Assembly: GCA_948989975.1 (NCBI GenBank)
Contig: CARHSH010000001.1
Location: 18,906 to 82,905 of the forward strand
Direction: 5' to 3'
Length of the DNA stretch: 64,000 nt
DNA from: an uncultured Lachnospiraceae bacterium
Lineage (GTDB): Bacteria; Bacillota; Clostridia; Lachnospirales; Lachnospiraceae
Below the pieces are notes generated by a model. That model was not told the DNA's origin and did no database searches. It was given only the letters and a program-made list of their open reading frames with translations. Made by a program: the position numbers and the translations under genes. Shown here piece after piece: positions 2,034 to 28,158 of the stretch (position 1 is its first letter; each line of letters opens with the position of its first letter).

Positions 2034-2043
2034 AAAATTGAAT

Positions 2044-2662: not shown

Positions 2663-2702
2663 AGAAGCGGCATCAAATTTTCCGATTTGATGCCGCTTTT
2701 AA
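2663..2702 (+). terminator. Rho-independent terminator after queT
   Basis: GAAGCGGCATCAAA...TTTGATGCCGCTTTT hairpin plus a T-run. Confidence 0.6.
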
Positions 2703-3193
2703 ACTATACTGTCCATGGGATTTACCTCCAATTTATATTTTCCGTCAGCTAGACTTAAAATAAATTTTCATTTTTTGGATTCAAACAGGAAACATATCTG
2801 AATATTGCAACTGCATCTCTGCTTGGAAATTCAAATTCATTTGTTCGTCCGAATTTGGAATCGTTACCTTTTTAATAAGGATTTTTTGGGATATTACGTT
2901 TTCTTTTTGGTGGACCGTACCTCCTGTTCTCTTAGATTTTAGAAGATGTTGTGTTTTTTGATAAATTTATTGTATTACAAAAATGGAATTATGTCAATAA
3001 AAAAATAGAAAAATATGTATAAGATTTTATAATAAAACATTTATTTTTTATAAGTGATAAAATATTCAGATAATTATGTGCTTCAGATGAAGGGTTATAC
3101 AGAATTGTAGACAGGTAATTGCGGCGATGGCTTGATTTCTTAGGCAAACTCGATTAGAATAAATTTAATTTAACCAAACGTGGAGATGAAATC

Positions 3194-4609
3194 ATGTATT
3201 TTAGTTCAATGACCTTTTTATGGATCTTTCTTCCGGCGACCTTGCTTTTATATTTGCTTGCGGAACGCTTTCAGAGGATTGCATTGGAAAATTTTGTCCT
3301 GCTGTCTGCAAGCCTTATTTTTTATGCTTGGGGAGAGCCGTTTTATATTTTCCTGTTGCTTTTCTCTGTATTGATGAATTATGTGTTTGGCAGGCTGCTT
3401 GAGGCAGAGCGGCCCCGTTTTAGAAAATGGATCTTAGCTTGCGGCGTTCTTTCAAATCTTGGTTTGCTGGCATTTTTCAAATACTTTAATTTCTTTGCGG
3501 GTTACATCAACCGTTTTTTGGGGCAGGATGCAGTTCCGCTTAGTGAGTTTACGCTGCCGCTTGGAATTTCATTTTATACGTTTCAGGCGATGTCTTATGT
3601 CATTGACGTTTACCGCAAAGAGGTAACGGCGCAGAGAAATTTCTTTTCTCTTTTGTTATATATCTCTCTGTTCCCACAGCTTGTCGCAGGGCCTATTGTG
3701 AAATATAAAGATATTGAGGAGCAAATCAAATACAGGACGAAAACGGATGCGAAACGGGCGTATGGGGTGAAACGGTTTATTTACGGGCTTGGCAAGAAAG
3801 TTTTAATTTCAAATGTGATGGGAAAATATGTGGATATGGTTTTAGCGTTTGAGACAAAACAGTTAAGCACAGGGCTGATGTGGCTGGTTATGATTATGTA
3901 TGCTTTTCAGATTTATTATGATTTTTCCGGTTATTCCGATATGGCAATCGGGCTTGGCTCTATGTTTGGGTTTGACTTTAAGGAGAATTTTCATTATCCG
4001 TATATTTCGAAATCCGTCCGTGAGTTTTGGACAAGGTGGCATATTTCCCTTTCCACTTGGTTTAAGGAGTATGTTTATATTCCCCTTGGCGGCAACCGGA
4101 ATGGGAAATGGAGGACATACCGGAATTTATTTCTCGTATTTCTTTTGACCGGATTTTGGCATGGCGCAGGATTAAATTTTGTGTTCTGGGGCATTTTCCA
4201 TGGGTGTTTTATGGTGTTAGAGCGGATTGGGTTTGGAAAACTGTTGGAAAAGAATCCGTTTAAAATTTTTAATCATATTTATATGGCCGTGACCGTTGTA
4301 TGTATCTGGACGTTTTTCCGCATTGAATCCATGCAGGCGGCAGGGGAATATTTAAAAGGAATGTTTATCTACCAGAGAGGGGAATACAATTTATTTTCCT
4401 GTATCAATTTGGAAATTATTTTGCTTCTTGTGACAGCGTTCCTCTTATGCGGCGTTTTACAGACGGCAGTTCCGAGATTAAAAGAAGCGCTTTATCAAAA
4501 AGAGAAGGTTTCCGCCGTTGAGTCGGTGGGATTGCTTGCAATATTGCTGTTATGCGTTGTTACGCTGTCAAGCAATTCATATAATCCATTTATTTATTTT
4601 CGGTTTTAA
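3194..4609 (+). CDS. MBOAT-family membrane-bound O-acyltransferase (AlgI/DltB/PatA-like)
   Basis: A 471 aa multi-TM protein with MBOAT hallmark regions (…WHISLSTWFKEYVYIPLGGNR… conserved His). Confidence 0.8.
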   Translation: MYFSSMTFLWIFLPATLLLYLLAERFQRIALENFVLLSASLIFYAWGEPFYIFLLLFSVLMNYVFGRLLEAERPRFRKWILACGVLSNLGLLAFFKYFNFFAGYINRFLGQDAVPLSEFTLPLGISFYTFQAMSYVIDVYRKEVTAQRNFFSLLLYISLFPQLVAGPIVKYKDIEEQIKYRTKTDAKRAYGVKRFIYGLGKKVLISNVMGKYVDMVLAFETKQLSTGLMWLVMIMYAFQIYYDFSGYSDMAIGLGSMFGFDFKENFHYPYISKSVREFWTRWHISLSTWFKEYVYIPLGGNRNGKWRTYRNLFLVFLLTGFWHGAGLNFVFWGIFHGCFMVLERIGFGKLLEKNPFKIFNHIYMAVTVVCIWTFFRIESMQAAGEYLKGMFIYQRGEYNLFSCINLEIILLLVTAFLLCGVLQTAVPRLKEALYQKEKVSAVESVGLLAILLLCVVTLSSNSYNPFIYFRF

Positions 4610-4620
4610 AAGGAGTAAGA

Positions 4621-5751
4621 ATGAAAAATAAATATATTTTTTATGTGTTTGTGTTGTTGTTGTCGCTCCCAGTGATTACGTTTCCGTTTATAAAGGGCCA
4701 TATAGATTCCAAAAACCATGAGAAGCGGAAATTTGCGGAGCGTCCGTCGCTTTCATTAGCGACATTGCCAGACTTTCCGGAGCAGTTTGACAACTATTTC
4801 AGCGATCATCTTCCATACAAGAACCAGCTTGTTATGGTAAATGGAATCAAGAATGAGTTGTTAGGTTCAGGCGCGACAGCGATTGAGTATTTGACAAACA
4901 CCAAGGCGATACGCGGGAAAGAGAACTGGCTGTTTTACAATGCGGTCAGTGAAGATGAAGAATCCATGCGGGATTTTCTGTGCAATAATTTATATGAAGA
5001 AAATGAGCTGTCCGAAATTTCAAAGCGCTATGTATTGCTTGAACAAAAGCTAAAGGAAATGGGGATTGAGCTGGTTGTTTTGTATGCCGCAAATAAGGAA
5101 CAAGTATATCCGGAATATATGCCGTCTACGATTGTTCCGATGGGTTCATACAGCAGGACGGATCAGCTTGTGGATTATCTGCATGAACATACTGACGTGC
5201 CCTTGATTTACACAAAAGAAGCCTTGCAGAAAGAAAAAGAGAACCATCAGGTTTTTTACAAATATGACACCCACTGGAATAATCTGGGCGGCTTTGTCGG
5301 ATGCCAGCTTCTCAATGAATATTTCCATGGGGAATATGTTTCTTTAGACGAAGTTTCTTATTCGGCTGTAAAAGACGATGAGAGCGGGGATTTGGCGGAT
5401 TTACTGTCAATGAGGAAAATTTTAAATGACGATATTGTTTGGGAAATAAACAGTTATAAGACAGACGTAAAAGAAGAAACGGTAAGGAATGACGACAACG
5501 CCTTTGAATTTGTGTCAAATGCAGAAGATAAAAGGAAAGTCCTTGTAGTTCAGGATTCGTTTGGATATGCGCTAATGGGGATTACAAAAGACTTTGCAGA
5601 GGTTACGTTTTTAAAGAATACGGAAGTGTTTAAAAAATATTGTGAAGAATGGAAGCCGGACATTTTGCTGGTGGAAATTGTCGAACGGCGTAAAAGGCCA
5701 CAAGAACAGATTTGCCAAGGGCTGTATGATTTATTAGTAAGCGGGGAATAG
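4621..5751 (+). CDS. DHHW-motif protein, the AlgJ/AlgX/PatB-like partner of the MBOAT
   Basis: N-terminal signal/TM segment; KYDTHWN (DHHW family) motif. It lies immediately after the MBOAT gene. Confidence 0.6.
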   Translation: MKNKYIFYVFVLLLSLPVITFPFIKGHIDSKNHEKRKFAERPSLSLATLPDFPEQFDNYFSDHLPYKNQLVMVNGIKNELLGSGATAIEYLTNTKAIRGKENWLFYNAVSEDEESMRDFLCNNLYEENELSEISKRYVLLEQKLKEMGIELVVLYAANKEQVYPEYMPSTIVPMGSYSRTDQLVDYLHEHTDVPLIYTKEALQKEKENHQVFYKYDTHWNNLGGFVGCQLLNEYFHGEYVSLDEVSYSAVKDDESGDLADLLSMRKILNDDIVWEINSYKTDVKEETVRNDDNAFEFVSNAEDKRKVLVVQDSFGYALMGITKDFAEVTFLKNTEVFKKYCEEWKPDILLVEIVERRKRPQEQICQGLYDLLVSGE

Positions 5752-5756
5752 AAACG

Positions 5757-6857
5757 ATGTATACGGAAGCCGGTTTAGTCAGAATTGCAAAACGGGAAAA
5801 TAATCCCAAGAGAAATTATTTAGTTGTCAACCGCCTGCAGGGAAAGCATATCCCTGTTTCTCCAACAAAAGCGTTTGAAATGTTTGACGCCCTTGCCGGA
5901 CAACTAAAGCGGGCGTATCCAAAGGAAACGTTACTCATTATTGGATTTGCTGAAACAGCGACTGCCATTGGCGCGCGGCTGGCAGCGCAGACGGATTCTT
6001 ATTATATGCAGACGACAAGAGAACAGATACCGAATGTGGAGTATATTTATTTTTCGGAAACGCACAGCCATGCAACGGAACAAAAGCTGGTCTGCAATGA
6101 TCTTGAACGGCTGATTGGGAAAATTGACCGGATTGTGTTTGCAGAAGATGAAGTGACGACAGGAAATACGATTCTGCATATGATTCAGAAATTAGAAGAA
6201 CGCTTTCCTTTAAAGACGCGGTTTTCCGTGGCTTCTTTGTTAAATGGCATGGATGCGGAGGCAAGAGAGCGTTATGCGGCAAAAGGGATTGATTTGCATT
6301 TTCTGGTGAAAACAGATCATGCTTCTTATGCCGAAAAAGCAGAGCGTTTCGCGGAGGACGGGACATACGTTTTAGCAAAGGCGGGGAACTTATATGCTTC
6401 AAAGCAGTATGTGGCGGGGAATTATGTCAATGCAAGAAGGCAGACGGCAGGAGCGGAATATACAAAAGCGTGCGAATCGCTTTGGGCGCAGATAAAAGAT
6501 TACATTTGTGAAGCGGCGTCCCAAGACATACTCGCGCTTGGAACGGAAGAATGTATGTATCCGGCGTTGTATGTAGGAGAATGTTTGGAACGGCTTGGGA
6601 ATCGCGTTTCCTGCCATGCGACGACGCGCAGTCCGATTGCGGTGAGCAGTGAGAATGAGTATCCACTGCATACGAGATATGAATTGGAGAGCGTTTACCA
6701 AGATGGCCGCAGAACGTTTCTTTATGATTTGAGACAGTATGACAAGGTCATTCTTGTTACGGATGCGCCGCAAACCCAAACGAAAGGGATCGGGACTTTA
6801 GTGGATGCTCTGGCGCGTTGTGGGAATCGGGAGATTCAGATTATTTGGTGGAGGTGA
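5757..6857 (+). CDS. Phosphoribosyltransferase (PRTase_2/TRSP-like) of the Ter-linked biosynthetic module
   Basis: Canonical PRPP-binding loop IVFAEDEVTTGNTI. Size (366 aa) and context (C-C lyase, HAD, TelA/TerD nearby) match Ter-associated PRTase proteins. Confidence 0.5.
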   Translation: MYTEAGLVRIAKRENNPKRNYLVVNRLQGKHIPVSPTKAFEMFDALAGQLKRAYPKETLLIIGFAETATAIGARLAAQTDSYYMQTTREQIPNVEYIYFSETHSHATEQKLVCNDLERLIGKIDRIVFAEDEVTTGNTILHMIQKLEERFPLKTRFSVASLLNGMDAEARERYAAKGIDLHFLVKTDHASYAEKAERFAEDGTYVLAKAGNLYASKQYVAGNYVNARRQTAGAEYTKACESLWAQIKDYICEAASQDILALGTEECMYPALYVGECLERLGNRVSCHATTRSPIAVSSENEYPLHTRYELESVYQDGRRTFLYDLRQYDKVILVTDAPQTQTKGIGTLVDALARCGNREIQIIWWR

Positions 6858-6860
6858 CGC

Positions 6861-7910
6861 ATGAGAAGTTCGTATCACAAAGACGATGTTTGTCTGCTTT
6901 TAAAAGATATTACGGGATTAGTGCAGCCCCAGCCGACAGATGAGCGGGAAAAACTGATTCAGGCAGGGCGCCATTATTGTGAAATGCTGCCAATCGAATA
7001 TGTGCCGACGGCAGAGTATATGGAAGCGTACCATGCGGCGTTAGAGCATTATGCAAAACCTACGGCGCGGGCAGTCGGGAATCTCGCGGATAAAATTATG
7101 CAGGCAAGGGGAGAAAAGACGGCGCTTGTGTCGTTGGCAAGAGCTGGGATTCCGGCTGGGATTCTTTTAAAATGGTATATTCGTTTTAAATACGGCGTGG
7201 ATTTGCCGCATTATTCAGTTTCCATTATACGGGGTAAAGGAATTGATGACAATGCAATGCAGTATTTGCTGAAACGGCATTTGCCAGAGCAGCTTTTGTT
7301 TGTAGACGGGTGGATTGGCAAGGGCGCGATTTTAAAAGAACTGCAGAAAGACATGGCGGCTTACCGCGGCGTTTCGCCTGAAATTGCCACACTTTCCGAT
7401 CCGGCAAATGTGACAGGGCTGTGTGGGACGCATCGGGATATTTTAATTCCGAGCTCTTGTTTAAATTGTACGGTTTCCGGTCTTATCAGCAGAACATTTT
7501 TGCGGGAAGACGTCATAGGAAAAGCGGATTTCCATGGCGCGGTTTATTATGAGGAATATCGGGATATGGATTTGTCCTATTCGTTTCTACATGCCATTGA
7601 AGCGGAATTTGAGAAGGATTGTAAGACCGATGACTTTTTTGTGGAAGGGTTTGGCTATGAGGAAGCGTGGGAGGTGGCAAGGGAATTTCAGATAGATGAC
7701 ATAAATTTAGTGAAGCCGGGAATTGGGGAAACGACAAGAGTCCTGCTCCGGCGGGCGCCTTTTAAAATCTTATTGGATAAACGGTATCAAAAAGATCCGT
7801 CACTGGCGCACATTTTACGTCTTGCAGAGGAAAAAGGCGTGCCAGTGGAGTTCTATCCGCTGAAGCATTATAAGGCCTGCGGAATCATAAAAAAAATGAC
7901 GGATTTATAG
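6861..7910 (+). CDS. PRTase-fold / StiP-like protein of the Ter-linked module
   Basis: A LLFVDGWIGKGAI segment resembles a degenerate PRPP loop. It is translationally adjacent to the PRTase gene. Confidence 0.35.
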   Translation: MRSSYHKDDVCLLLKDITGLVQPQPTDEREKLIQAGRHYCEMLPIEYVPTAEYMEAYHAALEHYAKPTARAVGNLADKIMQARGEKTALVSLARAGIPAGILLKWYIRFKYGVDLPHYSVSIIRGKGIDDNAMQYLLKRHLPEQLLFVDGWIGKGAILKELQKDMAAYRGVSPEIATLSDPANVTGLCGTHRDILIPSSCLNCTVSGLISRTFLREDVIGKADFHGAVYYEEYRDMDLSYSFLHAIEAEFEKDCKTDDFFVEGFGYEEAWEVAREFQIDDINLVKPGIGETTRVLLRRAPFKILLDKRYQKDPSLAHILRLAEEKGVPVEFYPLKHYKACGIIKKMTDL

Positions 7911-7917
7911 AGGTTCT

Positions 7918-8877
7918 TTATGTAATGCCGTAAGATTCGGCTAAATAGAGGATTTTTCTGGCCCAGTTGGAATGCGTTTTGCATTCGGTCATACGTTCAT
8001 TTTTGGCATTTCCGGATACCATAGAGATGGAAGTGGCGTCCCAATTAAGGATATGTTTTGCATCTGCAATGTCTTCTTTCGAAACGGCGTAGGTTTTGTT
8101 GACAAGCGGGATTTGCTTTGGGTGAATAACCGTTTTGCCAATAAAGCCTGCGCTTCTGTCGTTTTGCAGTTCCTGAAAAAGCCCGCGTTCCCAGTTGTCG
8201 CCATCATAGTATTCCCATACGGGACCGGATATTACATAGTCCATGCCAAATACAGTAATAATGTCAGAAAGGATATTTGCGACAGGGCGTATATCGTAAA
8301 TGGTTTCCGAACTGCGTCTGCGGAAGCCGAAAGCATGGCATAAATCGTTGCCGCCGACGCGGATATTTAACACAAGATCTTCAATGGCGCTTAATTTGTC
8401 TTTTATGCCATAAAGGAGTTTGTGGCGGGTTCTTAGGTCAATCAGGGACGGGCTTTCCATAATAGGCATAATATAGAAAGTCTGTGTCTGGGACTGGTTG
8501 AGCTGAACTATGGCTTTAATATAGCTGTCGGCGTTTGTCAGGTCAAATTTTGGGAGGATAAATCCGGTAAGTATGGATTTCGCTTCGTTTAACTGGCTGG
8601 CAAGACGGAGCGCTTGACCAGAGTTTCGAATGCGGATAAATATTTTTGGCAGATAAAAAGGTTTGGTTTTTAGGGCGGAATAAATTTGCCGAAGGGAGTT
8701 TAGGAGTATGGCTTCGGCTTCCGGCACGAATTGGTCGTTAATGGTGTCCTCTAAACACAGCGCCAGGGAAAATTGGCTGCCAAACCGCTGGCTTATGACA
8801 GATTCGGCAATGGATGTGTTGTTTGCCGGACAATATAGGAGAGCGCCGATACTGTAAGGCATTTGAGTGGTTTTCAT
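7918..8877 (-). CDS. HpcH/HpaI-CitE-like TIM-barrel C-C lyase (Ter-module lyase)
   Basis: 319 aa. The N-terminal segment SIGALLYCPANN resembles the CitE substrate motif. RBS AAAGGAGC. It is convergent with the PRTase genes and divergent from the protease operon. Confidence 0.45.
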   Translation of the reverse strand: MKTTQMPYSIGALLYCPANNTSIAESVISQRFGSQFSLALCLEDTINDQFVPEAEAILLNSLRQIYSALKTKPFYLPKIFIRIRNSGQALRLASQLNEAKSILTGFILPKFDLTNADSYIKAIVQLNQSQTQTFYIMPIMESPSLIDLRTRHKLLYGIKDKLSAIEDLVLNIRVGGNDLCHAFGFRRRSSETIYDIRPVANILSDIITVFGMDYVISGPVWEYYDGDNWERGLFQELQNDRSAGFIGKTVIHPKQIPLVNKTYAVSKEDIADAKHILNWDATSISMVSGNAKNERMTECKTHSNWARKILYLAESYGIT

Positions 8878-9040
8878 GTCAGGCTCCTTTTCTTATTTTC
8901 TAGCTTTTAGAATGATTTTTTGTTTGGCATAATAGCGTTTTTTTGAAATGGGTTGTTGTGGTTAAAATGCGTTTAGATTAGGATTGTTTTTATAGTTTTA
9001 TTGTATTTTTGTTGTATTTTTTCATGTTATTTTTTGTAAG

Positions 9041-9137
9041 TATTGCAATTTTGTAAGCATGGCGGCTTTTCGTGTATTGCAGTTTTGCAAGTATTGCAAT
9101 TTTGTATGTATGGCGATTTTGCGTGTATGGCAAGGGG
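9041..9137. repeat. About 6 tandem imperfect 17-nt direct repeats (consensus TATTGCAATTTTGYAWG) in the divergent intergenic region
   Basis: Read directly: tattgcaattttgtaag / catggcggcttttcgtg / tattgcagttttgcaag / tattgcaattttgtatg / tatggcgattttgcgtg / tatggcaagggg. Confidence 0.6.
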
Positions 9138-9308
9138 AGTTTATGGCGGGTGGGTCATCATTGGAATTACAAGTTTTTTGGAAACTTTTTGTTAATAATA
9201 GCATATATGGGGAATTATTGGTAGATAATTTTATGATTGTGTGGTAAAATTTAGATACTTTTAGAGTTTAACTTGTATATGTGCTTTTTACTCAGGGGGC
9301 GTTTTCAG

Positions 9309-10979
9309 ATGGACGGAATTATGCGGTTTCGGCATAATGTAATGAATATAGATTCTTTTGCTGCCTTTGAAAGTATTCGGGGCGGGGTGAATCAAGATTG
9401 CAGAGATGTTTATTTTGTCCGGTTTGTTGGGGTAAATGAGAAGATTCAATCTGATATACAGAAGATGGACGCTGATTTGCAGGAGCAGATGAGGCAGGGG
9501 CAGATCGGCTATCGGAGGACTGCCCATTTGCCGGGGATTGATTCTGGGGAGTCAGTGAAGCGTTATGTGGAACGGTATTTTGCTTGGGTGGAATCTGGGA
9601 GAATAAGTATATCCTCTGATGTTTTATCCGGTGACAAGGAGTATGAACGGGCGCTTGGCAACGCAGTTTTGAAAGTGACGGAGGTTTATTTTTCTGGGAA
9701 GCAGATGACGGAATCTATGGAAAAAAATTTTGTCGTGAAACTTTTGTTTTGGCATGATTTTTTGATGAATGGCGTTGCGCTGAATTGGAATGAAAGGGTG
9801 TCCGTTAAACTGGTTTTGGCGAATATTGTGAAAAGACAAGAGTATTTGTTTTGTTATCTGCTCACGTTGTTGGGATATGATGTGCTTTTACTGCAATGCG
9901 AAGCGGATATTTCAGCAGAAGATGCGAAGCTGGGGTATTCCCGAAAAATTGAGCTGGGGAATTTTGGGCGGATAGATTTTAAAGCTATGGAAACGGGAAA
10001 CAAGGCGGTTCCAGAATCTATAGCAACCGCAAAACTGGAATCAGCGGCAGAATCCGCAGCGGCAAGACCCGTTACGGTAACGAAGCCCGTAACAGCGGCG
10101 AAACCTGTGATGGCAACAAAGCCCGTAACGACGGCGAAACCTGTGACGGCAACAAAGCCCGTAACAGCGGCAAAACCCGTTACGGTGACGAAGCCCGTAA
10201 CGACGGCGAAACCTGTGACGGCAACAAAACCGGTAACGGCAGTAAATCCTGTGAAGGCAACGAAGCCTACAACAGCGGCGAAACCTGTGACGGCAACAAA
10301 ACCTGTATCGGCAGTAAAACCAGAGAGGGTGACGAAGCCTATAACGGCAACAAAACCAGTAACAGCGGTGAAACCTGTAATGGCAACGAAATCCGCAGGG
10401 AGCCGTGTGGAAAAAAGTTTCGAGGAGCTTGCGCTTCTTGCATCATCGGTTGTGCTGATTGCAATTCACGGCCATAATGGCGATGTGATAGGGACGGGTT
10501 CCGGTATTATGGTTGGGGCAAATGGGTATATTTTGACGAATTGCCATGTGGCAAGCGGCGGAAAATATTATTCAGTCCGGATAGAGGAAGATGAGACAGT
10601 TTACACGACAGATGAGTTAATAAAATACAATTCCGTATTGGATCTGGCAGTTCTTCGGATTGACAGGCGCTTAGAGCCGCTTACGCTTTACAGAGGGAAA
10701 CAAAAACTTGTCAGAGGGCAGAAAGTTGTGGCGATTGGAAGCCCGTTAGGGCTGTTTAATTCGGTGTCGGACGGAATTGTATCGGGATTCCGGCGGATAG
10801 ATGATGTGGATATGATTCAGTTTACGGCTCCGACTTCTCATGGAAGTTCGGGCGGAGCGGTGTTAAATATGTTTGGCGAAGTGATTGGGATTAGCACAGC
10901 GGGATTTGACAATGCGCAGAATATCAATCTTGCAGTTGGCTATGAAAGCATTAAGCCGTTTATCAGAGGGTTTACATAA
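9309..10979 (+). CDS. Three-part protein: a YceG-N-like N-terminal domain, a (KPVTxx)n tandem-repeat linker, and a C-terminal trypsin-like (S1, HtrA-like) serine protease domain
   Basis: Catalytic His (TNCHVASGG), Asp (DLAVLRID) and Ser (GSSGGAVLN) are present. The ATG at 9309 follows GGGGG; the track start at 9273 is probably too far upstream. Confidence 0.6.
   Translation: MDGIMRFRHNVMNIDSFAAFESIRGGVNQDCRDVYFVRFVGVNEKIQSDIQKMDADLQEQMRQGQIGYRRTAHLPGIDSGESVKRYVERYFAWVESGRISISSDVLSGDKEYERALGNAVLKVTEVYFSGKQMTESMEKNFVVKLLFWHDFLMNGVALNWNERVSVKLVLANIVKRQEYLFCYLLTLLGYDVLLLQCEADISAEDAKLGYSRKIELGNFGRIDFKAMETGNKAVPESIATAKLESAAESAAARPVTVTKPVTAAKPVMATKPVTTAKPVTATKPVTAAKPVTVTKPVTTAKPVTATKPVTAVNPVKATKPTTAAKPVTATKPVSAVKPERVTKPITATKPVTAVKPVMATKSAGSRVEKSFEELALLASSVVLIAIHGHNGDVIGTGSGIMVGANGYILTNCHVASGGKYYSVRIEEDETVYTTDELIKYNSVLDLAVLRIDRRLEPLTLYRGKQKLVRGQKVVAIGSPLGLFNSVSDGIVSGFRRIDDVDMIQFTAPTSHGSSGGAVLNMFGEVIGISTAGFDNAQNINLAVGYESIKPFIRGFT
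10063..10390 (+). repeat. In-frame 36-nt (12-aa KPVTAAKPVTAT) tandem repeat, about 9 copies, inside the protease gene
   Basis: Near-identical nucleotide units aagcccgtaacagcggcgaaacctgtgacggcaaca repeated in tandem. Confidence 0.7.
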
Positions 10980-11005
10980 AGTTTTCAAAGGGATAATGGG
11001 AATCT

Positions 11006-13279
11006 ATGTTTGAACATAAAATAATTCAGGATTTAGATGAATATTTTTTGAAACAGAGCGGCCGAAAAGAGACCGGCGTGTACTTTTACCGGATCAATGG
11101 GTATAGTGAGCGGATTTGTGGTTTTGTACAGAAATATTTTGATGCGGCGCGGGTTTGCGGCGTTGTGATTGAAGGGAAAATTCCAAATCCCGATGAGCGC
11201 CAGCTTGCGTATTATTCGGAAATAATGGGAGAAACGTTTCGGTTGAGTGTCGGATTTATCCGGCAGTCGCTTGCGAAATGGCTTCCGCGAATGAACGGGA
11301 ATCAGCAGGAGAATGTGGCTGTTTCTATCTATGACACGCTAAATGACATGCGCCGCATGGGCAAAAATGACAATATCCTGAAAAACACGTATATTAAGTT
11401 TATGTGCTGGCTTTATTATAAGTTTGAACGGATTGTAAATTGTTTAGGCGCAGAACAACTGCCTAAGATTTTATATGAAGGGGAAGTCAGCAATTATGAA
11501 TTAAAGCTGCTCTGCGTTTTGTCAAAAGCGGGATGTGACATTGTTCTGCTTCAATATCATGGCGATTTGGCGTATTTAAAACTTGATCCGAAGTCGGAAA
11601 CTTCTATGGAATGGACGCAGGAAGGGCTGACAGCGTTTCCGGAATGGTTTCATTTAAAGTGGATTCAGCAGGAATCGCAGAGAGAGCGGGAGAGAGAACG
11701 TCTCTACGGGGGCGCGCCGGAGTTTCTAAACGCAACGAATGTCTGGATTCAGGGAACAGGGCTTACCGACATAAAAACAGGAATCTCAGCAAGAGGAGAC
11801 GATCCAAAGCTGTTTTATAACTGTTTTATCCGCATTTGCGGCGTGGAGGATAAGCTAACGTATATGAATGAACTGTATCAATTTCAGCTTGAATTTAAAG
11901 CGGGCAAACGAAATCTTTTGGTATTGGACGGGCAGATTCCAAAGCCTTCTATGGAAGAAATTGCCGGAATCCGCAGAGGGAATTATAGCAGTTTTGATTC
12001 GATGCTGGCAGATTTATCTTCAGGCATCCAGTATAGCGCAAACCTTTCCTTGCAGAAGCTTATGCGGAAAGCTTTTTTAGACGTTATGTTTGAGGCGCAA
12101 AAACTGCCGGATATGAATGTCAACAAACTGACAAATAAAGCGGTGTATCTGCTTTGCTGGCTGAAACGCTATCAGGGTAAACTGTTTTCTAATTGGAAGT
12201 TCCCCCAAATTGGATGCGTGATTTTCTTCAATGCGTGCAAAAATGAAAATGAAGCGTTGTTTCTAAAAATGCTTGCAAGGCTTCCGGCAGATGTGCTTTT
12301 ACTTAGTCCGGATCAAAATGAGCGCTGTATCGTCAAAGATAAATTATTATATGAAATCCAATATGGAGAGTCGATGTCTGTAAAGGATTTTCCGGCGGAA
12401 GAATCGCAAATCCGTATGTCGACGGCGGCATATCAGGCGGAACGGGAGCTTGACTCGCTGATGTATGAGGATTCCGGATTGTACCGGAACAGGCAGTATG
12501 AGAAGGCGAATGCAGTTTCTTTAAAAACGACATATGAAGAAATTGCAATACTTTGGAATGAGGAATTGCAGTATCGGCCAAACTTTAGTACAATAGATGC
12601 AGCAGTGAATGCGCCTGTGTTGTTTGCGAAAGTATCCGGCGTAAAAGACGGGCAAAAACAGCAGTATTGGGCGGATATAAAGGAATTGATTACAAAAGAC
12701 GCCATTGTGGTAAAACAGGTTCCTTATATTCGCAGGGAAGATGAAAACCCCATAAAACCTTATGCAACGGAATTTTTAAAGAATGGAAAAGCGCAAAAGG
12801 CGAAGATAAAGGCGCATAAGGCATACCGTTACAGTTTTTTGCGGGAAGAAATCCAAGACTATATTTTGGATAAACTTCAGCTTTTGCTTGACCAGCGGAT
12901 TATAAAAGGGACATATGAGAATGGTACAGAGTATACGATTGTGTCTGCCGTATTAAATCTGAAACAGGAAATTATCCGTTTACTGCAAAATTTCGATTTT
13001 ACCAAAAAAAATCCGAAATTGATTTATATTCATACTTCAGAGGCGGCGCCTTCGTTGGAAGATGCGGTGATGGCGGCTTTTTTGAATCTGGCGGGCTTCG
13101 ACGTTTTGGTTTTTACGCCGACCGGATACCAGAGCATAGAAAATTTTTACACGCGTGAGATTTTAGAGGAACATCAGATCGGGGAATATATGTATGATTT
13201 AAGCGTTCCAAATTTCGACAGGCTTTCATTTGGCGCGCCCCTGTCATGGTACGAAAAAATTTTTAAGAGAGGAAGATAA
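11006..13279 (+). CDS. Large TelA-associated protein (YceG-like), with internally repeated D[IV][VL]LL modules
   Basis: 757 aa. Its N-terminal ~200 aa align with the N-terminal domain of the upstream protease (GVYFYRINGYSE / DVYFVRFVGVNE; CDIVLLQYHG / YDVLLLQCEA). It lies immediately upstream of telA, as yceG does in Bacillus. Confidence 0.35.
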   Translation: MFEHKIIQDLDEYFLKQSGRKETGVYFYRINGYSERICGFVQKYFDAARVCGVVIEGKIPNPDERQLAYYSEIMGETFRLSVGFIRQSLAKWLPRMNGNQQENVAVSIYDTLNDMRRMGKNDNILKNTYIKFMCWLYYKFERIVNCLGAEQLPKILYEGEVSNYELKLLCVLSKAGCDIVLLQYHGDLAYLKLDPKSETSMEWTQEGLTAFPEWFHLKWIQQESQRERERERLYGGAPEFLNATNVWIQGTGLTDIKTGISARGDDPKLFYNCFIRICGVEDKLTYMNELYQFQLEFKAGKRNLLVLDGQIPKPSMEEIAGIRRGNYSSFDSMLADLSSGIQYSANLSLQKLMRKAFLDVMFEAQKLPDMNVNKLTNKAVYLLCWLKRYQGKLFSNWKFPQIGCVIFFNACKNENEALFLKMLARLPADVLLLSPDQNERCIVKDKLLYEIQYGESMSVKDFPAEESQIRMSTAAYQAERELDSLMYEDSGLYRNRQYEKANAVSLKTTYEEIAILWNEELQYRPNFSTIDAAVNAPVLFAKVSGVKDGQKQQYWADIKELITKDAIVVKQVPYIRREDENPIKPYATEFLKNGKAQKAKIKAHKAYRYSFLREEIQDYILDKLQLLLDQRIIKGTYENGTEYTIVSAVLNLKQEIIRLLQNFDFTKKNPKLIYIHTSEAAPSLEDAVMAAFLNLAGFDVLVFTPTGYQSIENFYTREILEEHQIGEYMYDLSVPNFDRLSFGAPLSWYEKIFKRGR

Positions 13280-13281
13280 CT

Positions 13282-14424
13282 ATGGGCCTAGATTTTAGTA
13301 AAACGGCAGTACAGCAGCAGGCAACGGCTCCTGAGGCTAAAAATGAACTTCAAATTGCAGAAACTTATGACATCGTTTCAGACAGACAGCAGATGAATGA
13401 CGAACTAGTCAATTCCGCAGAGGTGGATGCGCTGGTCAGTACGATTGAGGTGAATAATTTAGAAACAATCGTGTCATTTGGCGCGGAAGCGGCAGAAGAA
13501 ATTTCAAAAGCGTCGGACGTAGTCTTAAACAGTATGAATATGTCGCAGATTGACGATACAAGCGTTATGCTGACGACGCTTTCAAAAATAATGTCGAAGT
13601 TTGACATCGAGGAAATACAGGAAAATCCGGGGCTGTTTGGCAAGTTATTTGGGAATATGCGCAAGCAGTTGGATAAAATCCTTGCGAAATACCATACGAT
13701 GGGCGAGGAAGTGGACAAAATTTATGTGCAGTTGAAACAGTATGAATCGGAAATCAAACAGTCAAACAGAAAATTAGACCAGATGTTTACGGCAAATGTA
13801 AATTATTATCATGAACTTGTCAAATATATACTGGCAGGCGAGCAAGGCTGTCGGGAATTGGAAGATTATATTGCGCAGCGGAGGACAGATATGGAGGCTA
13901 GCGGCGATATGTCGATCCAGTTTGAAATCCAGAGTTTGGAACAGGCGCTTATGATGCTAGAACAGCGGACGCAGGACTTACGGACGGCGGAAAGCGTGGC
14001 AATGCAGTCAGTGCCGATGATAAAGACAATGGCATTTTCCAATATGAATCTCGTACGGAAAATCAACTCTGCGTTTATCGTGACGCTTCCGGTCTTTAAA
14101 CAGGCTCTGGCTCAGGCGATTATGTTAAAACGCCAGAGGATTCAGGCGGAAGCCATGTCTGCATTAGATGAAAAAACAAATGAGATGTTAGTGAAAAATG
14201 CCAGAAATACAGTAGAACAGTCGAAAATGACGGCGCGTCTTGCATCCGGCAGTTCCATTAAAATTGAAACATTAGAGACAACTTGGAGAACGATTGTAAA
14301 CGGTATTGATGAAACAAGGCAGATTCAGGAAACGGCGAGAAAACAGCGCGTAGAGGATCAGGCAAGGCTTCAAAATATCAAAGATGAGTTCAACAGGATG
14401 TATCATATGCCCAAAAAACAATAA
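13282..14424 (+). CDS. telA: TelA/KlaA-family toxic-anion-resistance protein
   Basis: A 380 aa coiled-coil-rich protein typical of TelA (YceH-like). The gap to the upstream gene is 3 nt. Confidence 0.7.
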   Translation: MGLDFSKTAVQQQATAPEAKNELQIAETYDIVSDRQQMNDELVNSAEVDALVSTIEVNNLETIVSFGAEAAEEISKASDVVLNSMNMSQIDDTSVMLTTLSKIMSKFDIEEIQENPGLFGKLFGNMRKQLDKILAKYHTMGEEVDKIYVQLKQYESEIKQSNRKLDQMFTANVNYYHELVKYILAGEQGCRELEDYIAQRRTDMEASGDMSIQFEIQSLEQALMMLEQRTQDLRTAESVAMQSVPMIKTMAFSNMNLVRKINSAFIVTLPVFKQALAQAIMLKRQRIQAEAMSALDEKTNEMLVKNARNTVEQSKMTARLASGSSIKIETLETTWRTIVNGIDETRQIQETARKQRVEDQARLQNIKDEFNRMYHMPKKQ

Positions 14425-14449
14425 TAATAATACATAAGGAGGAATAGTT

Positions 14450-15031
14450 ATGCCAATTAATTTATCAAAAGGACAAAAGGTTGATTTAACAAAAGGAAAT
14501 CCGGGACTAAAGAAAATTATGGTGGGTCTTGGCTGGGACGTAAACCAGTTTGATTCCGGCGCGGATTTTGACTTGGATGCGGCCGCATTTATGCTGGCAG
14601 GCGCCGGAAAATGCCCGACGGAAAAAGAATTTATCTTTTATGGAAATTTAGAGCATGGCAGCGGATCCGTATTGCATATGGGCGACAACTTAACGGGAGA
14701 GGGGGAAGGCGACGATGAGCAAATCGAAGTCGACTTATCGAAAGTTCCGGCAAATATCGAACGGATCGCATTTACGGTAACGATTTATGATTCCGATGCG
14801 CGCAGGCAGAATTTCGGGCAGGTGTCTAATTCCTTTATCCGAATCGTAGATGAATCGACCGGCGCAGAATTAATCCGTTATGATTTAGGCGAAGATTTTT
14901 CTGTAGAGACAGCCGTAGTCGTTGGGGAACTCTACCGTCACAATGGAGAATGGAAATTCAATGCCATCGGAAGCGGTTTTCAGGGAGGACTTGCGGCGTT
15001 GTGCGGCCATTATGGAATCGAAGTGGCATAA
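14450..15031 (+). CDS. terD: TerD-family stress protein (Ca2+-binding)
   Basis: [15 protein letters not shown] calcium-binding motif; 193 aa. Confidence 0.8.
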
Positions 15032-15043
15032 GGAGGGTGGAAT

Positions 15044-15634
15044 ATGTCAATTAGTTTACAGAAAGGCCAGAAAGTCAGTTTGACGAAAGAAAACGCAGGG
15101 CTTTCTTCTGTGTTAATCGGACTGGGATGGGACGAAGCAAAACGAATGCGCGGCGGTTTTTTTTCGCCGAAGCCACAGCCGATTGACTGTGATGCATCCG
15201 CGCTTTTGCTAAGGGGCGGAAGGCTGATAGAACAGGCGGATATTGTGTATTTTGGAAATCTTTCGCATAAGACGGGCACAGTCCGCCATATGGGGGATAA
15301 TTTAACGGGCGCGGGGGAAGGCGACGATGAACAGATTATCGTAGACTTAGACCAGCTTCCGGCGGAATATGATAGAATTGTCATCGTTGTCAATATCTAT
15401 GAAGCAAACCAGCGTAACCAGCATTTTGGAATGATAGAAAACGCGTTTATCCGTCTGGTAGATGGAAAAACAAATCAGGAAATGTGCAAATACAATCTGT
15501 CTGAGAATTATACTGGTATGACGGCGATGATTTTTGGTGAAGTCTACCGCCATAATGGAGAGTGGAAATTCAACGCCATCGGACAGGCGACAAACGATCC
15601 GGGGTTAAGCTCTCTTGTCAACCGATACAGGTAA
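15044..15634 (+). CDS. terD: TerD-family stress protein, second paralogue
   Basis: [15 protein letters not shown] motif; 196 aa; RBS AAGGAGGG. Confidence 0.8.
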   Translation: MSISLQKGQKVSLTKENAGLSSVLIGLGWDEAKRMRGGFFSPKPQPIDCDASALLLRGGRLIEQADIVYFGNLSHKTGTVRHMGDNLTGAGEGDDEQIIVDLDQLPAEYDRIVIVVNIYEANQRNQHFGMIENAFIRLVDGKTNQEMCKYNLSENYTGMTAMIFGEVYRHNGEWKFNAIGQATNDPGLSSLVNRYR

Positions 15635-15640
15635 ACATAA

Positions 15641-15680
15641 TGTACTCCCGAAATCACAGTACATGGATTTTGGGAGTACA
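15641..15680. promoter_or_regulatory. 14-bp perfect inverted repeat (TGTACTCCCGAAAT...ATTTTGGGAGTACA) between terD and the ATPase gene
   Basis: Seen directly. No U-tract follows, so it is not a classic terminator. It is a candidate operator or RNA processing/attenuation hairpin. Confidence 0.4.
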
Positions 15681-15703
15681 AAAACGTTTCAAGGAGGAAC
15701 GAA

Positions 15704-18364
15704 ATGAAATATCAGGGACTTACAGAAAAGGAAGTGGAAGCTTCCAGAAGGCAGCATGGTTCGAATGAAATTCCAGATTCTGAACCGACGACGTTTTGGG
15801 AGGAATTTAAAGAAACATTTGGCGATCCGATGATAAAAATATTGCTTGCAATCGCGGCATTGATGATCGTTATGTTTTTCTTTGGGTATGCAGAAATCTA
15901 TGAACCGCTCGGGACGATAATTGCTGTTTTAATTGTTGCGTTTGTATCTGCAAAAACAGGCGTGGCAAGCGACACGAAATACCGTGAATTAAAAGACAGC
16001 GCGAAAAAAGACCAATGTAAGGTGTACCGTAACGGCATAGTGACAGTGATTGACGTAGATGACGTTGTTGTAGGAGATAAAGCGCTCTTACAGTCCGGCG
16101 ATAAAATACCCGCTGACGGAATCTTGGTGTCGGGCTCCCTTGCCGTGGATAATTCTGCGCTAAACGGGGAAGCGGAAGAATGTAAAAAAACAGAAGCGCC
16201 GGAACAGACAGAGCTTGCAGATGACATAACCGGAGATACTTTTGTAGACAGGCATTCCCTGTTCCGCGGCGCGGTTGTGTTTGACGGAGAAGGGGTTTTA
16301 GACGTCCGCAAAGTCGGCTTAAAGACAATGATGGGCAAAATGGCGGAAGAAATGCAGGAAGATGAGCCGGATTCCCCGTTAAAAGTCAAACTGGCAAAAC
16401 TGGCAAAACAAATTTCTACATTTGGCTATATTGGCGCGATCGTTATAGCCGTATTATATTTTGCGTATTTTATTATATCCGCAGGCGGCGTGTCTGATTA
16501 CTTTGCCAGCGGCGCAGAGCAGATTATCAAAGATCTCGTAGAAGCCGTGTCGCTTGCAGTCGTTATTATCGTCTGCGCTGTTCCGGAAGGCCTGCCGCTT
16601 ATGATTTCCTTAGTGCTTATGCAAAATACAAGCAAAATGTTAGATCACAACGTGCTGGTCCGTAAAGCGGAAGGAATTGAAACTGCGGGCTCCCTGAATA
16701 TTTTATTTAGTGACAAAACGGGAACAATTACGAAAGGAATGCTGGAAGTTGTGGATTTCTTTACGGCGGACGGCAATTCCATAGAAATACCGGACTTAAG
16801 CAAACACAGCGGAGTAAAAGGCCTTCTTGACCTTGCCATCGGCAAAAATACGCAGTCTATGTTTGACGGCGAGCATAGAGTGATAGGCGGAAACGCTACG
16901 GATCAGGCTCTCATGAAATTTATCGGTGAATCTACCTTCCGGGCGCTTGAGGCGGACAAAGAATGTAAGGTAACGAAATCGCAGAGTTTTAATTCCGCCA
17001 ATAAATTCAGTCAGGCAAGGATTGACAGCGTCGGAAAAACATTCTATAAAGGCGCGCCGGAACGGCTGCTTGCAATGGCGGGCAAATATTTAGACGGAAA
17101 CGGTGACGTGAAAACGCTAGACAAAGCCGCGCTGGACAAAAAAATCGACGCTCTTGCCGCAAAGGCTATGCGTGTTTTAGCTTTTGGCTATTCCGAGAAA
17201 GATCTCGTGGAGAACAAAATTAATGATGATGTCGTAATTATTGGTTTAGTTGGAATCCGCGATGACGTAAGGCCGGAAGCGCGTGAAGCGATAGAAGAAG
17301 TGCAAAAGGCGGGAATCCAAGTTGTAATGATAACTGGAGACCGTTTGGAAACGGCGGTTGCCATCGCAAAAGATGCGGGTCTTTTGCAGAATGATTCAGA
17401 TATTGCGCTGTCTTCTTCACAGCTCAACGAAAAGTCTGACGACGAACTGAAAAAAATTATACCGAATATCCGCGTCATTGCAAGGGCGCTTCCAACGGAT
17501 AAATCCCGTATGGTGCGTTTATGTCAGGAAATGAATCTTGTCGTAGGCATGACTGGGGACGGCGTCAACGACTCTCCCGCCCTAAAACGCGCAGACGTAG
17601 GCTTTGCAATGGGAAGCGGCACAGAAGCGGCAAAAGAAGCTGGGAAAATTGTAATATTAGATGACAATTTTAAATCCATTAAAGATGCAATCTGGTATGG
17701 CAGGACGATATACCACAATATCCTAAAGTTTTGTAAATTCCAGCTTGTCATAAATGTAGCGGCTGTCGTAGTCAGCGCAATCGCGCCGTTTTTCGGCGTA
17801 GAGGAGCCGTTAAAAGTCACCCATCTTCTGTTTGTCAATCTGGTAATGGACGGCTTGGGCGCAATTATGCTTGGCAACGAGCCGGCTCTGAAAAAATATA
17901 TGGGCGAAAAACCCAGAAGAAGGGACGAGAGCATTGTCAGCAAGAAAATGATGGCCCAGATCATTGTCATGGGCGCCTGGCTTACTTTTATCAGTTTTCT
18001 ATACTTAAAGCATCCATTTTTCAGAGGTTTATTTGATACAGAAAAACAGCATTTGACAGGTTACTTTGTTCTGTTTATTGTTAGCGCTTTGTTTAACGGA
18101 TTTAATGTTAGAGATGACAGCTTTGCTATTTTCAAAGGATTAAGCGAGAATACTGGTTTCTTAAAAGTGTTTTTTATCATTATACTTGTGCAGGCGGTCA
18201 TCGTCAATGCGGCGCTAGTCCCGTTTACGGCGTTTACATGGATTGGAAATATGTTTAGCTGTGTGCCGTTTGGGCTTACCGGCTGGGTGGCAGTGATACT
18301 TCTGGCAGTTACCATGATTCCCGTTGACCTAATCCGAAAAGCGCTGATAGGAAAAGGAAATTAA
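15704..18364 (+). CDS. P2-type cation-transporting ATPase (Ca2+-ATPase-like)
   Basis: DKTGTIT phosphorylation motif, TGDRLETA, GDGVNDSPALKRADVGFAMG hinge, 886 aa, PMCA/YloB-like N-terminus. Confidence 0.85.
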   Translation: MKYQGLTEKEVEASRRQHGSNEIPDSEPTTFWEEFKETFGDPMIKILLAIAALMIVMFFFGYAEIYEPLGTIIAVLIVAFVSAKTGVASDTKYRELKDSAKKDQCKVYRNGIVTVIDVDDVVVGDKALLQSGDKIPADGILVSGSLAVDNSALNGEAEECKKTEAPEQTELADDITGDTFVDRHSLFRGAVVFDGEGVLDVRKVGLKTMMGKMAEEMQEDEPDSPLKVKLAKLAKQISTFGYIGAIVIAVLYFAYFIISAGGVSDYFASGAEQIIKDLVEAVSLAVVIIVCAVPEGLPLMISLVLMQNTSKMLDHNVLVRKAEGIETAGSLNILFSDKTGTITKGMLEVVDFFTADGNSIEIPDLSKHSGVKGLLDLAIGKNTQSMFDGEHRVIGGNATDQALMKFIGESTFRALEADKECKVTKSQSFNSANKFSQARIDSVGKTFYKGAPERLLAMAGKYLDGNGDVKTLDKAALDKKIDALAAKAMRVLAFGYSEKDLVENKINDDVVIIGLVGIRDDVRPEAREAIEEVQKAGIQVVMITGDRLETAVAIAKDAGLLQNDSDIALSSSQLNEKSDDELKKIIPNIRVIARALPTDKSRMVRLCQEMNLVVGMTGDGVNDSPALKRADVGFAMGSGTEAAKEAGKIVILDDNFKSIKDAIWYGRTIYHNILKFCKFQLVINVAAVVVSAIAPFFGVEEPLKVTHLLFVNLVMDGLGAIMLGNEPALKKYMGEKPRRRDESIVSKKMMAQIIVMGAWLTFISFLYLKHPFFRGLFDTEKQHLTGYFVLFIVSALFNGFNVRDDSFAIFKGLSENTGFLKVFFIIILVQAVIVNAALVPFTAFTWIGNMFSCVPFGLTGWVAVILLAVTMIPVDLIRKALIGKGN

Positions 18365-18365
18365 T

Positions 18366-19121
18366 ATGATACGGTTCCATGCAGATTTAGACAATACGAT
18401 ACTGTATTCCTATAAACACGAAATTGGCGAAACTAAAAATTGCGTAGAAGTCTATCAGGGAAGGCAGATATCCTATATGACGCATGAGACTGCCCGGCTT
18501 CTAAGTGGGTTAAAAGAAAAAATGTCTATCGTCCCGACTACGACAAGGACGGTAGAACAGTACAAACGGCTGGATCTTTCCGTTATTTCCCCAAAATATG
18601 CGCTGGTATGCAATGGCGGGGCGCTGCTTGTGGACGGAGAAGAAGATATGGATTGGTATAAAGAGTCGCTTGCGCTGATTTCGGACAGTAGGGAAATGTT
18701 AAAATATGGAGAATGGCTTTTAGGGCAGGATGAAAACCGCTGTTTTGAGGTCAGGAATATCAAAGGGCTTTTCATTTTTACAAAAAGTGAAAAGCCCTTC
18801 ACTTCGGTAATGCGGTTAAAAGAGCGTTTGGACGAAAGCCTGACTGATATATTCAGTAACGGCGCGAAAGTATACATAGTGCCGAAACGGCTGAATAAAG
18901 GAATGGCGGTTTCACGGTTCCAAAAACGGTATCCTTCCGATTTAGTCATCGCGGCGGGAGACAGTGAATTTGACATACCGATGTTAAATGAAGCCCGTCT
19001 TGCAGTCGCGCCGCGCGCATTAAAAGGCGGGAAAGGAATAAAAGGCCATATTACATATATGAGAGGGAAGAAACTATTTTCTGAAGAAGGATTAGAGTAT
19101 ATAACTAATATAATAATGTAG
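18366..19121 (+). CDS. HAD-superfamily phosphatase (Ter-module HAD)
   Basis: N-terminal HADLDNTIL (DxDxT) motif; 251 aa; 1-nt gap from the ATPase gene. Confidence 0.6.
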   Translation: MIRFHADLDNTILYSYKHEIGETKNCVEVYQGRQISYMTHETARLLSGLKEKMSIVPTTTRTVEQYKRLDLSVISPKYALVCNGGALLVDGEEDMDWYKESLALISDSREMLKYGEWLLGQDENRCFEVRNIKGLFIFTKSEKPFTSVMRLKERLDESLTDIFSNGAKVYIVPKRLNKGMAVSRFQKRYPSDLVIAAGDSEFDIPMLNEARLAVAPRALKGGKGIKGHITYMRGKKLFSEEGLEYITNIIM

Positions 19122-19393
19122 GAAACAGACTGTATTTTTGCCGTATAGCGTGTCATATCATATTTTGCGCTATGCGGTTTTTATAACAGTTTTTTCGTAA
19201 CAAGGCGCTTATTAAATTGATGCGTAATTTAATACAAATTCAATATGATACAATGATATGTTTTTTTTTGTTTTGTATGATTGAACAAAAAACTATAAAA
19301 TTATATGGCAAAACAAGGCATACTGTGATATACTAAAACATATATCAAAATGGGCAATATAAAATATGCACAATTAAGAAAGGAGCATATGAT

Positions 19394-28132: not shown

Positions 28133-28158
28133 GAATGGCAGGATGAGGAGGAAGAATT

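Follow-up and report, generated by a model that had tools for sequence, protein, structure and literature searches.

Genes of the Ter, TelA and YceG families occur widely, in pathogens and commensals as well as on plasmids and in phages, and for decades it has not been clear how they work. The framework that links them to a module for a nucleoside-like metabolite reportedly originates with Anantharaman, Iyer and Aravind in 2012. Here, we analyse a locus of this kind, contained in a 13.4-kb segment of the genome of an uncultured Lachnospiraceae bacterium (contig CARHSH010000001.1), in a stretch of 64,000 nucleotides referred to below as the window, where two TerD genes are followed by a gene for a predicted P2B (PMCA-type) Ca2+-ATPase. 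The most useful lead it offers is the recurrence of this pairing of TerD with a Ca2+ pump, large gut phage contigs included. The Ter biosynthetic module and the roles of TerD and TelA are summarized in PMC7824862 and PMC11994780, and on its profile matches the window fits that module through its phosphoribosyltransferase (PRTase), StiP, C-C lyase and HAD phosphatase and through their linkage to TerD and TelA, but not through an ATP-grasp enzyme.

In Bacillus, the 'cluster 2' of B. altitudinis 3W19 runs terD (three copies)-terC-lyase-PRTase-StiP-HAD-yceG-yceH/telA (PMC11994780). This cluster and the yceCDEFGH type, for which we used a B. thuringiensis record (NZ_CP151872), share with the window YceG, TelA and TerDs carrying a Ca2+-type motif, and all are from Bacillota; cluster 2 and the window also both hold a lyase, PRTase_2, StiP and HAD set that lacks ATP-grasp. 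There are also differences. The Bacillus type has TerC (YceF), whereas the window does not, the P2B Ca2+-ATPase being the sole membrane transporter there; the YceG of the window is a three-domain protein of 757 amino acids, against about 540 amino acids in the Bacillus records compared; and the window adds a fusion of a YceG domain to an S1 protease, to which most of its relatives add a rhomboid protease. The order differs too, with YceG and TelA preceding the TerDs and the HAD set apart from the other enzymes, after the pump.

The enterobacterial island, exemplified by Klebsiella pKPN-262, combines terZABCDEF with ATP-grasp-PRTase-StiP-lyase and a TerY/PP2C/kinase set. Homologous PRTase, StiP, lyase and TerD proteins occur in both the island and the window, and in both the metabolite arm lies beside the TerDs. 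The window lacks the TerA/Z/F, TerB and TerC components, the TerY-type vWA protein, the kinase/phosphatase pair and ATP-grasp (no TerA/TerZ/TerF, TerB or TerC type was found among the cluster's Pfam-scanned open reading frames (ORFs), TerB having been sought only there), whereas the island lacks TelA, YceG, the pump and the protease. As in the window, a single genome encodes both a P2 Ca2+-type ATPase and TerD paralogues in jumbo gut phages (PMC12880540); in the searched passages of that report the highly transcribed TerD genes and the Ca2+ ATPase are given as separate, unlinked findings, which our analysis brings together. Ter genes also occur in other jumbo phages (PMC7824862), and most phage versions, unlike the window, come without YceG, TelA, protease and biosynthetic enzymes. 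No searchable paper ties a TerD/TelA operon to a Ca2+ ATPase, a rhomboid or an S1 protease, an earlier mention in the 2012 comparative study being possible. The Lachnospiraceae variant of the Ter/TelA/YceG system is common, as detailed below, and previously little discussed.

All ten ORFs of the cluster lie at their expected coordinates, and Pfam and NCBIfam profile searches assigned their families, confirming each of the gene identities that an earlier note had proposed from the letters alone. Seven of the genes form a plus-strand block encoding a YceG-type domain-S1 protease fusion (9309..10979), a protein with three YceG_bac domains (11006..13279), TelA (13282..14424), TerD1 (14450-15031), TerD2 (15044-15634), the ATPase (15704..18364) and a HAD-IIB phosphatase (18366..19121). 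Along the block the intergenic gaps measure 26, 2, 25, 12, 69 and 1 nt, so that the earlier figure of 36 nt or less holds at five junctions (1-26 nt) and fails at the widest, the 69 nt between TerD2 and the ATPase. We infer that the seven genes are co-transcribed. TelA (toxic anion resistance; YceH-like) matches its Pfam model with 341 bits, and TerD1 and TerD2 match Pfam TerD with 284 and 253 bits, respectively. Both TerD paralogues carry the motif GDNLTG[EA]GEGDDE, one form of which is GDNLTGAGEGDDE; we take this motif to be the Ca2+-binding signature of Klebsiella TerD, to which TerD1 is 55% identical.

The pump passes the curated cut-off of the PMCA-type model TIGR01517 (564 bits against 507), its second-best NCBIfam model being the PMR1 type, at 415 bits against a cut-off of 798. 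The NCBI pipeline likewise names a near-identical protein a PMCA-type Ca2+ ATPase, and the best PDB matches are ACA8 (8qmp) and LMCA1 (6zhf/9euq). The DKTGT motif, the PEGL Glu of M4, GDGxND, the Asn of M5 and the Asn/Asp of M6 are all present, and as read from the alignment the ion-site residues are arranged as in single-site pumps such as LMCA1 and those of the PMCA type. Both LMCA1 (from Listeria) and ACA8 (from plants) align with the window pump over their full length, with the same DKTGT, PEGL Glu, M5 Asn and M6 Asn/Asp and with ten hydrophobic segments in common; they differ from it in having TGES where the window pump has NGEA, and the window gene lies inside a Ter operon. The protein is thus predicted to export Ca2+. 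The argument of the earlier note that a Ca2+ pump suits an operon with Ca2+-binding TerDs holds at the level of residues, given the Ca2+-type motif in both TerDs and the P2 single-site residues in the pump.

The substitution in the A domain, LNGEA at about residues 153-157 against the canonical TGES, keeps the Glu. The window pump shares LNGEA with 59 of 65 orthologues, a second Ter-linked lineage described below has LNGES, and NGEx is found in 62 of the 113 nearest cluster representatives, some of them without Ter neighbours. Such a clade-wide distribution makes it a trait of the clade and not a defect of the window's pump gene. The NGE[STA] ATPases look like an uncharacterized subclade of bacterial and phage P2 pumps.

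To place the cluster among its relatives, we took the best 80 loci for one YceG query, nearly all from Lachnospiraceae, and mapped every window protein onto each of them; downstream genes were counted in the 67 loci that have 9 kb or more of downstream DNA, and upstream genes in the 58 that have 7 kb or more of upstream DNA. The query protein has more than 4000 homologues, relatives of it are encoded in at least 527 GTDB species genomes, and the exact window YceG protein was found in 334 blocks of the indexed assembly collection. The gene order of the window cluster recurs in 80 other species-level genomes, which bears out the earlier expectation that the genes would be co-conserved, and the arrangement is beyond chance. 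YceG, TelA, TerD and a P2 ATPase follow one another in the same order in all 67 scorable loci, TelA being 76-93% identical throughout. TerD is present in three copies in 58 of these loci, in two copies in 5 and in four copies in 4, and the HAD gene is found in 64 of 67; lying downstream of the pump and belonging to the biosynthetic module, it leaves the pump bracketed by Ter genes. Upstream, the lyase is retained in 51 of 58 loci, StiP in 49, the protease fusion in 47 and the PRTase in 42, and a rhomboid protease stands between the S1 protease and YceG in 32. A more distant locus, with a YceG 46% identical to the window's, has the same order without the protease, and the closest relative of the window locus comes from a mouse-gut metagenome-assembled genome (L004).

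In most loci the pump is by far the more conserved partner, with 78-92% identity to the window pump in 61 of 67, against 58-65% for YceG and about 50-65% for the enzymes. In the remaining six, the same slot is filled by a different P2 ATPase lineage, 34% identical to the window pump. This second lineage, seen in L024, L036, L064, L069, L070, L071 and L077, sits after the TerD genes, and its best model is also the PMCA type, at 454 bits, under the cut-off of 507. As a side observation, about 25 relatives carry an extra divergent TerD-domain gene just past the HAD gene on the opposite strand (19935-20768, minus strand, in L024), which is absent from the window; it encodes 277 amino acids about 35% identical to TerD1 and is followed by a gene for a 293-residue protein without an NCBIfam match.

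Against this background the window is a reduced variant, without ATP-grasp, without rhomboid and with two TerDs only, of an architecture that is the standard, common Lachnospiraceae form and not a one-off. The Ter-type ATP-grasp amide ligase (ATPgrasp_Ter, PF15632), which belongs to the five-enzyme version of the biosynthetic module, was not found anywhere in the 64-kb window even at E<=1, in agreement with the earlier note. That note had further proposed that pump and protease are there instead of ATP-grasp, which does not hold up: of 58 relatives, 11 have ATP-grasp, placed between StiP and the lyase, and all 11 have pump and protease as well. As an ATP-grasp-less module has also been described in Bacillus (PMC11994780), ATP-grasp varies independently of the two. 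Rhomboid and TerC were likewise not found in the window even at E<=1, and for TerC neither a tblastn search with the Bacillus protein, across the window and 84 related loci, nor Pfam among the cluster ORFs gave a match.

The pairing of TerD with a P2 pump reaches beyond the family. An Alkaliphilus megaplasmid has the order lyase-PRTase-StiP-HAD-TerD-TerD-AIM24-P-type ATPase, and in the B. thuringiensis record, which is labelled as a plasmid, three TerD genes, TerC, YceG and TelA are followed by a P2 ATPase gene (9003-11669 of our extracted locus) that is convergent to TelA and has the canonical TGES. The Alkaliphilus and B. thuringiensis pumps are 31-34% identical to the window pump and to each other. 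For four of the nearest representative ATPases contigs were examined, and Ter genes lie beside two: P0154, in a HAD...AIM24-ATPase...TerD-TerD context, and P0155, in a phage-like stretch of a metagenome contig with ATPase...TerD...TerD-YceG-methylase-TelA. A scan of IMG/VR with P0155 as the single protein query gave zero matches, whereas an alignment-based scan found 106 viral contigs with pump relatives, from which 79 loci were kept (L094-L172). The pump relatives in these loci share 34-62% identity with the window pump, and in 71 of the 79 a TerD gene lies no more than 5 kb from the ATPase gene. TelA is present in 15 of these loci and YceG in 10; the lyase/PRTase/StiP/HAD set appears in two (L139 and L162). 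The commonest viral type, represented by L102, has the order small ORF-ATPase-vWA (TerF-like)-three TerDs-PspA-like protein, surrounded by an integrase, an HNH endonuclease, nucleotidyltransferases and PHROG families, and is similar to the jumbo gut phages of PMC12880540. Three further loci, L091-L093, belong with these IMG/VR contigs. The swap of P2 lineages within the Lachnospiraceae slot, together with the recurrence of the pairing elsewhere, provides sequence-level evidence for selection on the function of the pump.

The protease upstream of YceG is the second conserved addition. Its gene probably begins at ATG 9309, as called in identical contigs, rather than at TTG 9273. The product joins a YceG-type domain (YceG_bac, 29 bits against a cut-off of 25) through a linker to an HtrA-like S1 protease domain (Trypsin_2, 92 bits). 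The N-terminal domain is faint in the window and reaches 54 bits in relatives, and the N-terminal 230 residues align weakly to each of the three repeats of the YceG protein (Pfam, three stretches, 439 bits in total). The protease and the YceG-like protein, two items in the list of the earlier note, are related, the protease having its own N-terminal YceG-type domain. The His/Asp/Ser triad motifs NCHV, LDLAV and GSSGG are present, with partial matches to HtrA-family NCBIfam models. Pfam and NCBIfam gave no PDZ match, the chain stopping just past the protease domain, and a hydropathy scan gave no signal peptide or membrane segment, all of which points to a cytoplasmic protein. The same catalytic domain is found in HtrA/DegP (S1C), which have in addition their PDZ domain(s) and an extracytoplasmic location; the likeness is therefore one of the protease domain only and not of family membership. 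The linker is encoded by a tandem repeat of 18/36-nt units (10057..10391, plus strand) that specify KPVTA(T/A)-type hexapeptides, with 16 units in the window, L082 and L084 (556 amino acids) and 10 in L083 (515 amino acids). With a strain-variable number of units, the length of the tether between the YceG-type and protease domains varies by strain.

The small-molecule enzymes fall into the Ter-linked families to which the earlier note had assigned them. The PRTase (5757..6857, plus strand) combines PRTase_2 and TRSP domains (Pfam, 151 and 74 bits), has the phosphoribosyl pyrophosphate (PRPP) loop IVFAEDEVTTGNT at residue 126 and is 25% identical over nearly its full length to the Klebsiella ter PRTase. 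The PRTase-like StiP protein (6861..7910, plus strand; Pfam StiP 326 bits) ends, as StiP proteins of this module usually do, in a PELOTA_1 (L7Ae-like) domain (100 bits) that weakly matches L7Ae structures, and it is 36% identical to Klebsiella StiP and 48% to that of Alkaliphilus. Convergent with it and divergent from the protease operon lies the gene for a Ter-type TIM-barrel C-C lyase of the CitE/HpcH-like kind (7918..8877, minus strand), which matches the full C-C_Bond_Lyase model (PF15617) with 324 bits, is 31% identical to the Klebsiella ter lyase and has full-length matches in ter clusters on 2530 plasmids, along with weak PDB matches to CitE/malyl-CoA lyase. PDB sequence searches with PRTase_2, StiP and TelA returned no informative solved relatives. 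The HAD-IIB (Cof/S6PP-like) phosphatase, assigned by Pfam and NCBIfam, starts 1 nt past the ATPase stop on the plus strand, keeps the DxDxT motif I as DLDNT and shares 28-30% identity with its Ter-linked counterpart on the Alkaliphilus plasmid. By analogy with the described modules, the product would be a ribonucleoside-like metabolite.

From the observed gene content, domain identities, motifs and co-conservation we draw a model in which this Lachnospiraceae form of the Ter/TelA/YceG system is a module for envelope stress or phage conflict with Ca2+ at its centre, a reading that we hold with moderate confidence. In the small-molecule arm, the PRPP-using PRTase, the StiP-PELOTA protein and the CitE-like lyase would make a ribonucleotide-like compound, which the HAD phosphatase would dephosphorylate to a nucleoside-like signal. 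TelA, the triple YceG protein and the two Ca2+-binding TerDs would form a soluble, membrane-proximal arm, and the P2B ATPase would fill the transporter place held by TerC in the Bacillus and enterobacterial clusters. The protease may dock onto the YceG/TelA assembly through its own YceG-type domain and flexible linker; this contact, like all others between proteins in the model, is putative. Membrane damage by phage, bacteriocins or xenobiotics would let Ca2+ leak in, the TerDs would bind the incoming Ca2+ as a sensor or buffer, TelA and YceG would coordinate events at the membrane, where the tethered protease would provide a regulated output, and the pump, presumably co-transcribed downstream of the TerDs, would extrude Ca2+ and reset the system. 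What recommends the model is the near-obligate pairing of TerD and pump (67 of 67 scorable genomes, lineage swaps and 71 of 79 viral contigs), which leads to the hypothesis that Ca2+ flux is sensed and corrected. It also draws attention to a conserved proteolytic arm, the S1 protease and in most relatives a rhomboid, in an abundant gut family.

A broader idea, which we put forward tentatively as falling somewhat short of probable, is that TerD and a P2-type pump are a portable two-part Ca2+-handling unit, a sensor or buffer with an extruder, that gut Bacillota build into Ter/TelA/YceG clusters and that large gut phages use for host Ca2+ control or phage competition. If so, the primary job of 'tellurite resistance' TerDs would be to manage Ca2+ transients after a membrane breach, and in Lachnospiraceae the downstream outputs would be the YceG-tethered protease, with the rhomboid in most relatives, and the nucleoside-like signal.

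Several observations weigh against the Ca2+-centred model. The conserved NGEA in place of TGES could mean an altered catalytic cycle; the eukaryotic PMR1-type relatives of the pump move Mn2+ besides Ca2+, and sequence does not fix ion specificity. The pump family is not specific to Ter clusters, since two ATPases of the NGE clade, P0151 and P0152, lack Ter genes nearby. All 80 bacterial loci were taken as best matches to a single query, come from one clade and hence are not independent samples, just as the 79 viral loci amount to about nine identity groups; moreover, IMG/VR calls for contigs of 100-355 kb can be wrong, and of the two viral contigs in which gene content was checked, L102 is clearly phage-like and L094 consists mostly of ORFans. 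The YceG domain fold gives no lead on function. On the metabolite side, no protein of the Klebsiella ter cluster detectably matches the window HAD, which may thus be of a different HAD lineage, and PRTase and StiP belong to a transcription unit distinct from that of the pump.

The cluster could be mainly a system of phage conflict that uses Ca2+ and a nucleoside-like signal to bring about abortive infection or to exclude superinfecting phages, in bacteria and large phages alike, with envelope-stress tolerance as a side effect; we think this possible but rather doubtful. The ATPase-TerD pair, with or without TelA/YceG, on 71 of 79 IMG/VR contigs, some clearly phage-like, speaks for it, as do the proposal that Ter systems are anti-phage and inter-phage competition devices (PMC7824862) and the high transcription of TerD and Ca2+-ATPase genes in Jug phages (PMC12880540). 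The evidence from defence-system models cuts both ways, since the protease domain resembles the protease of the retron-type reverse transcriptase-protease model of PADLOC and is the only part of the cluster with a PADLOC match. The locus itself is chromosomal, at a conserved position, uniform in composition and set among housekeeping, surface and flagellar genes, not in a defence island. A primarily anti-phage role would nonetheless be compatible with the Ca2+-centred model, and the two are not separable here.

For the substrate of the pump, the main rival is Mn2+. In this reading, which we consider unlikely, the exported ion is Mn2+ or some other divalent metal, the pump is a non-orthologous replacement of TerC, and the cluster serves metal supply or detoxification at the membrane and not Ca2+ signalling. 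TerC is absent from the window and the related loci, where a P2 ATPase is always there, and it occupies the equivalent transporter position in Bacillus-type clusters (NZ_CP151872; PMC11994780); members of the TerC family in Bacillus are Mn2+ exporters that metalate secreted enzymes (references 35 and 44 of PMC12054061). The PMR1 type is, besides, the second-best NCBIfam model, but its 415 bits are far under 798, whereas the curated PMCA-type cut-off is passed, and both TerDs keep the Ca2+-binding signature. The coexistence of TerC with a neighbouring P2 ATPase in the B. thuringiensis record also argues against a simple replacement. With TerC undetected here and serving as the transporter in Bacillus clusters, a pump in its stead is a reasonable view, and its substrate may be Mn2+.

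That pump and HAD are housekeeping genes kept beside a Ter cluster by inherited synteny in one family, with no functional tie, we regard as very unlikely. One clade does supply all 80 bacterial loci, and related NGE-type ATPases exist without Ter neighbours, but the genes are on one strand with gaps of 1-69 nt, the slot survives a swap to a pump lineage only 34% identical, and pumps of other P2 lineages came to lie beside Ter genes independently in Alkaliphilus, B. thuringiensis and many viral contigs. A true role in resistance to tellurite or toxic anions, suggested by the family names and by the tellurite phenotypes of ter, telA, yceGH and stiP elsewhere (PMC11994780, PMC12054061), is most improbable, tellurite being an unlikely selective agent in the inferred gut habitat, no reductase or methyltransferase being present and the conserved partners being a Ca2+-type pump and Ca2+-binding TerDs.

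The TerD2-ATPase gap holds a very stable hairpin of 40 nt without a U-tract (15641..15680, plus strand; -29.5 kcal/mol, z = -8.1); some 25-33 of 66 relatives have a hairpin like it, chiefly those with a gap of at least 80 nt. It is a candidate for an intra-operon processing, stabilizing or attenuating element and may set the TerD-to-pump expression ratio. A second hairpin, followed by a U-run (19140..19185, plus strand; -28 kcal/mol over 19122-19200, z = -5.9), marks the probable end of the operon; a consensus terminator scan gave chance-level output and missed it because of its 13-nt loop.

At the other end, the divergent intergenic region between lyase and protease (8878..9308) contains a promoter-like site on the plus strand (9222-9250; TAGATA-17-TAAAAT with the TG of an extended -10), and a k-mer of its -35 region is found again in about nine relatives. 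A sigmaW-like GAAAC-N16-CATA at 9181 was rejected, being present in just 1 of 52 equivalent intergenic regions. The same region carries six tandem 17-nt units of TTTTGYRWGYATKGCRR at window positions 9032-9133 (five matches against 0.19 expected by chance). This array is confined to the species (L082-L084) and its copy number differs by strain, L083 having a single exact copy; as a conserved operator it was therefore rejected. An Rfam search of the whole window at gathering scores found zero families, hence none in 8878..9308, and an E-value search of positions 1-20000 gave one weak match, to PreQ1, outside the cluster; no known riboswitch thus controls the operon.

Upstream of the cluster, an MBOAT O-acyltransferase gene (3194-4609, plus strand) is separated by 11 nt from a gene for an AlgX-like SGNH protein (4621-5751, plus strand), both assigned by Pfam, and the latter by 5 nt from the PRTase gene, with which the pair is probably co-transcribed. 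With the PRTase starting so close behind the pair, PRTase and StiP form a plus-strand transcription unit apart from that of the pump. Pairings of MBOAT and AlgX-like SGNH proteins are typical of polysaccharide or cell-wall O-acylation systems. Among the loci compared, the pair is limited to this species and L004, and it probably lies outside the core of the module.

The PreQ1 match (1987-2034) is sub-threshold, with 24.2 bits against a gathering score of 39 and E = 0.41, and lies directly upstream of a QueT transporter gene (2038-2535), a context that makes a real riboswitch likely. Downstream of the cluster, positions 19394-27127 encode a protein of 2577 amino acids that combines GH95 (fucosidase-type) catalytic domains with F5/8-C, Big_2, FIVAR, Listeria-Bacteroides repeat and BspA-type LRR domains, which looks like a giant surface-anchored glycan-degrading enzyme. 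It is followed by a flagellar late-gene cluster (27620-37283) with FlgN, two FlgK-like paralogues, a flagellin-domain protein, FliW, FlaG, FliD and FliS, which identifies the organism as a flagellated Lachnospiraceae-like bacterium.

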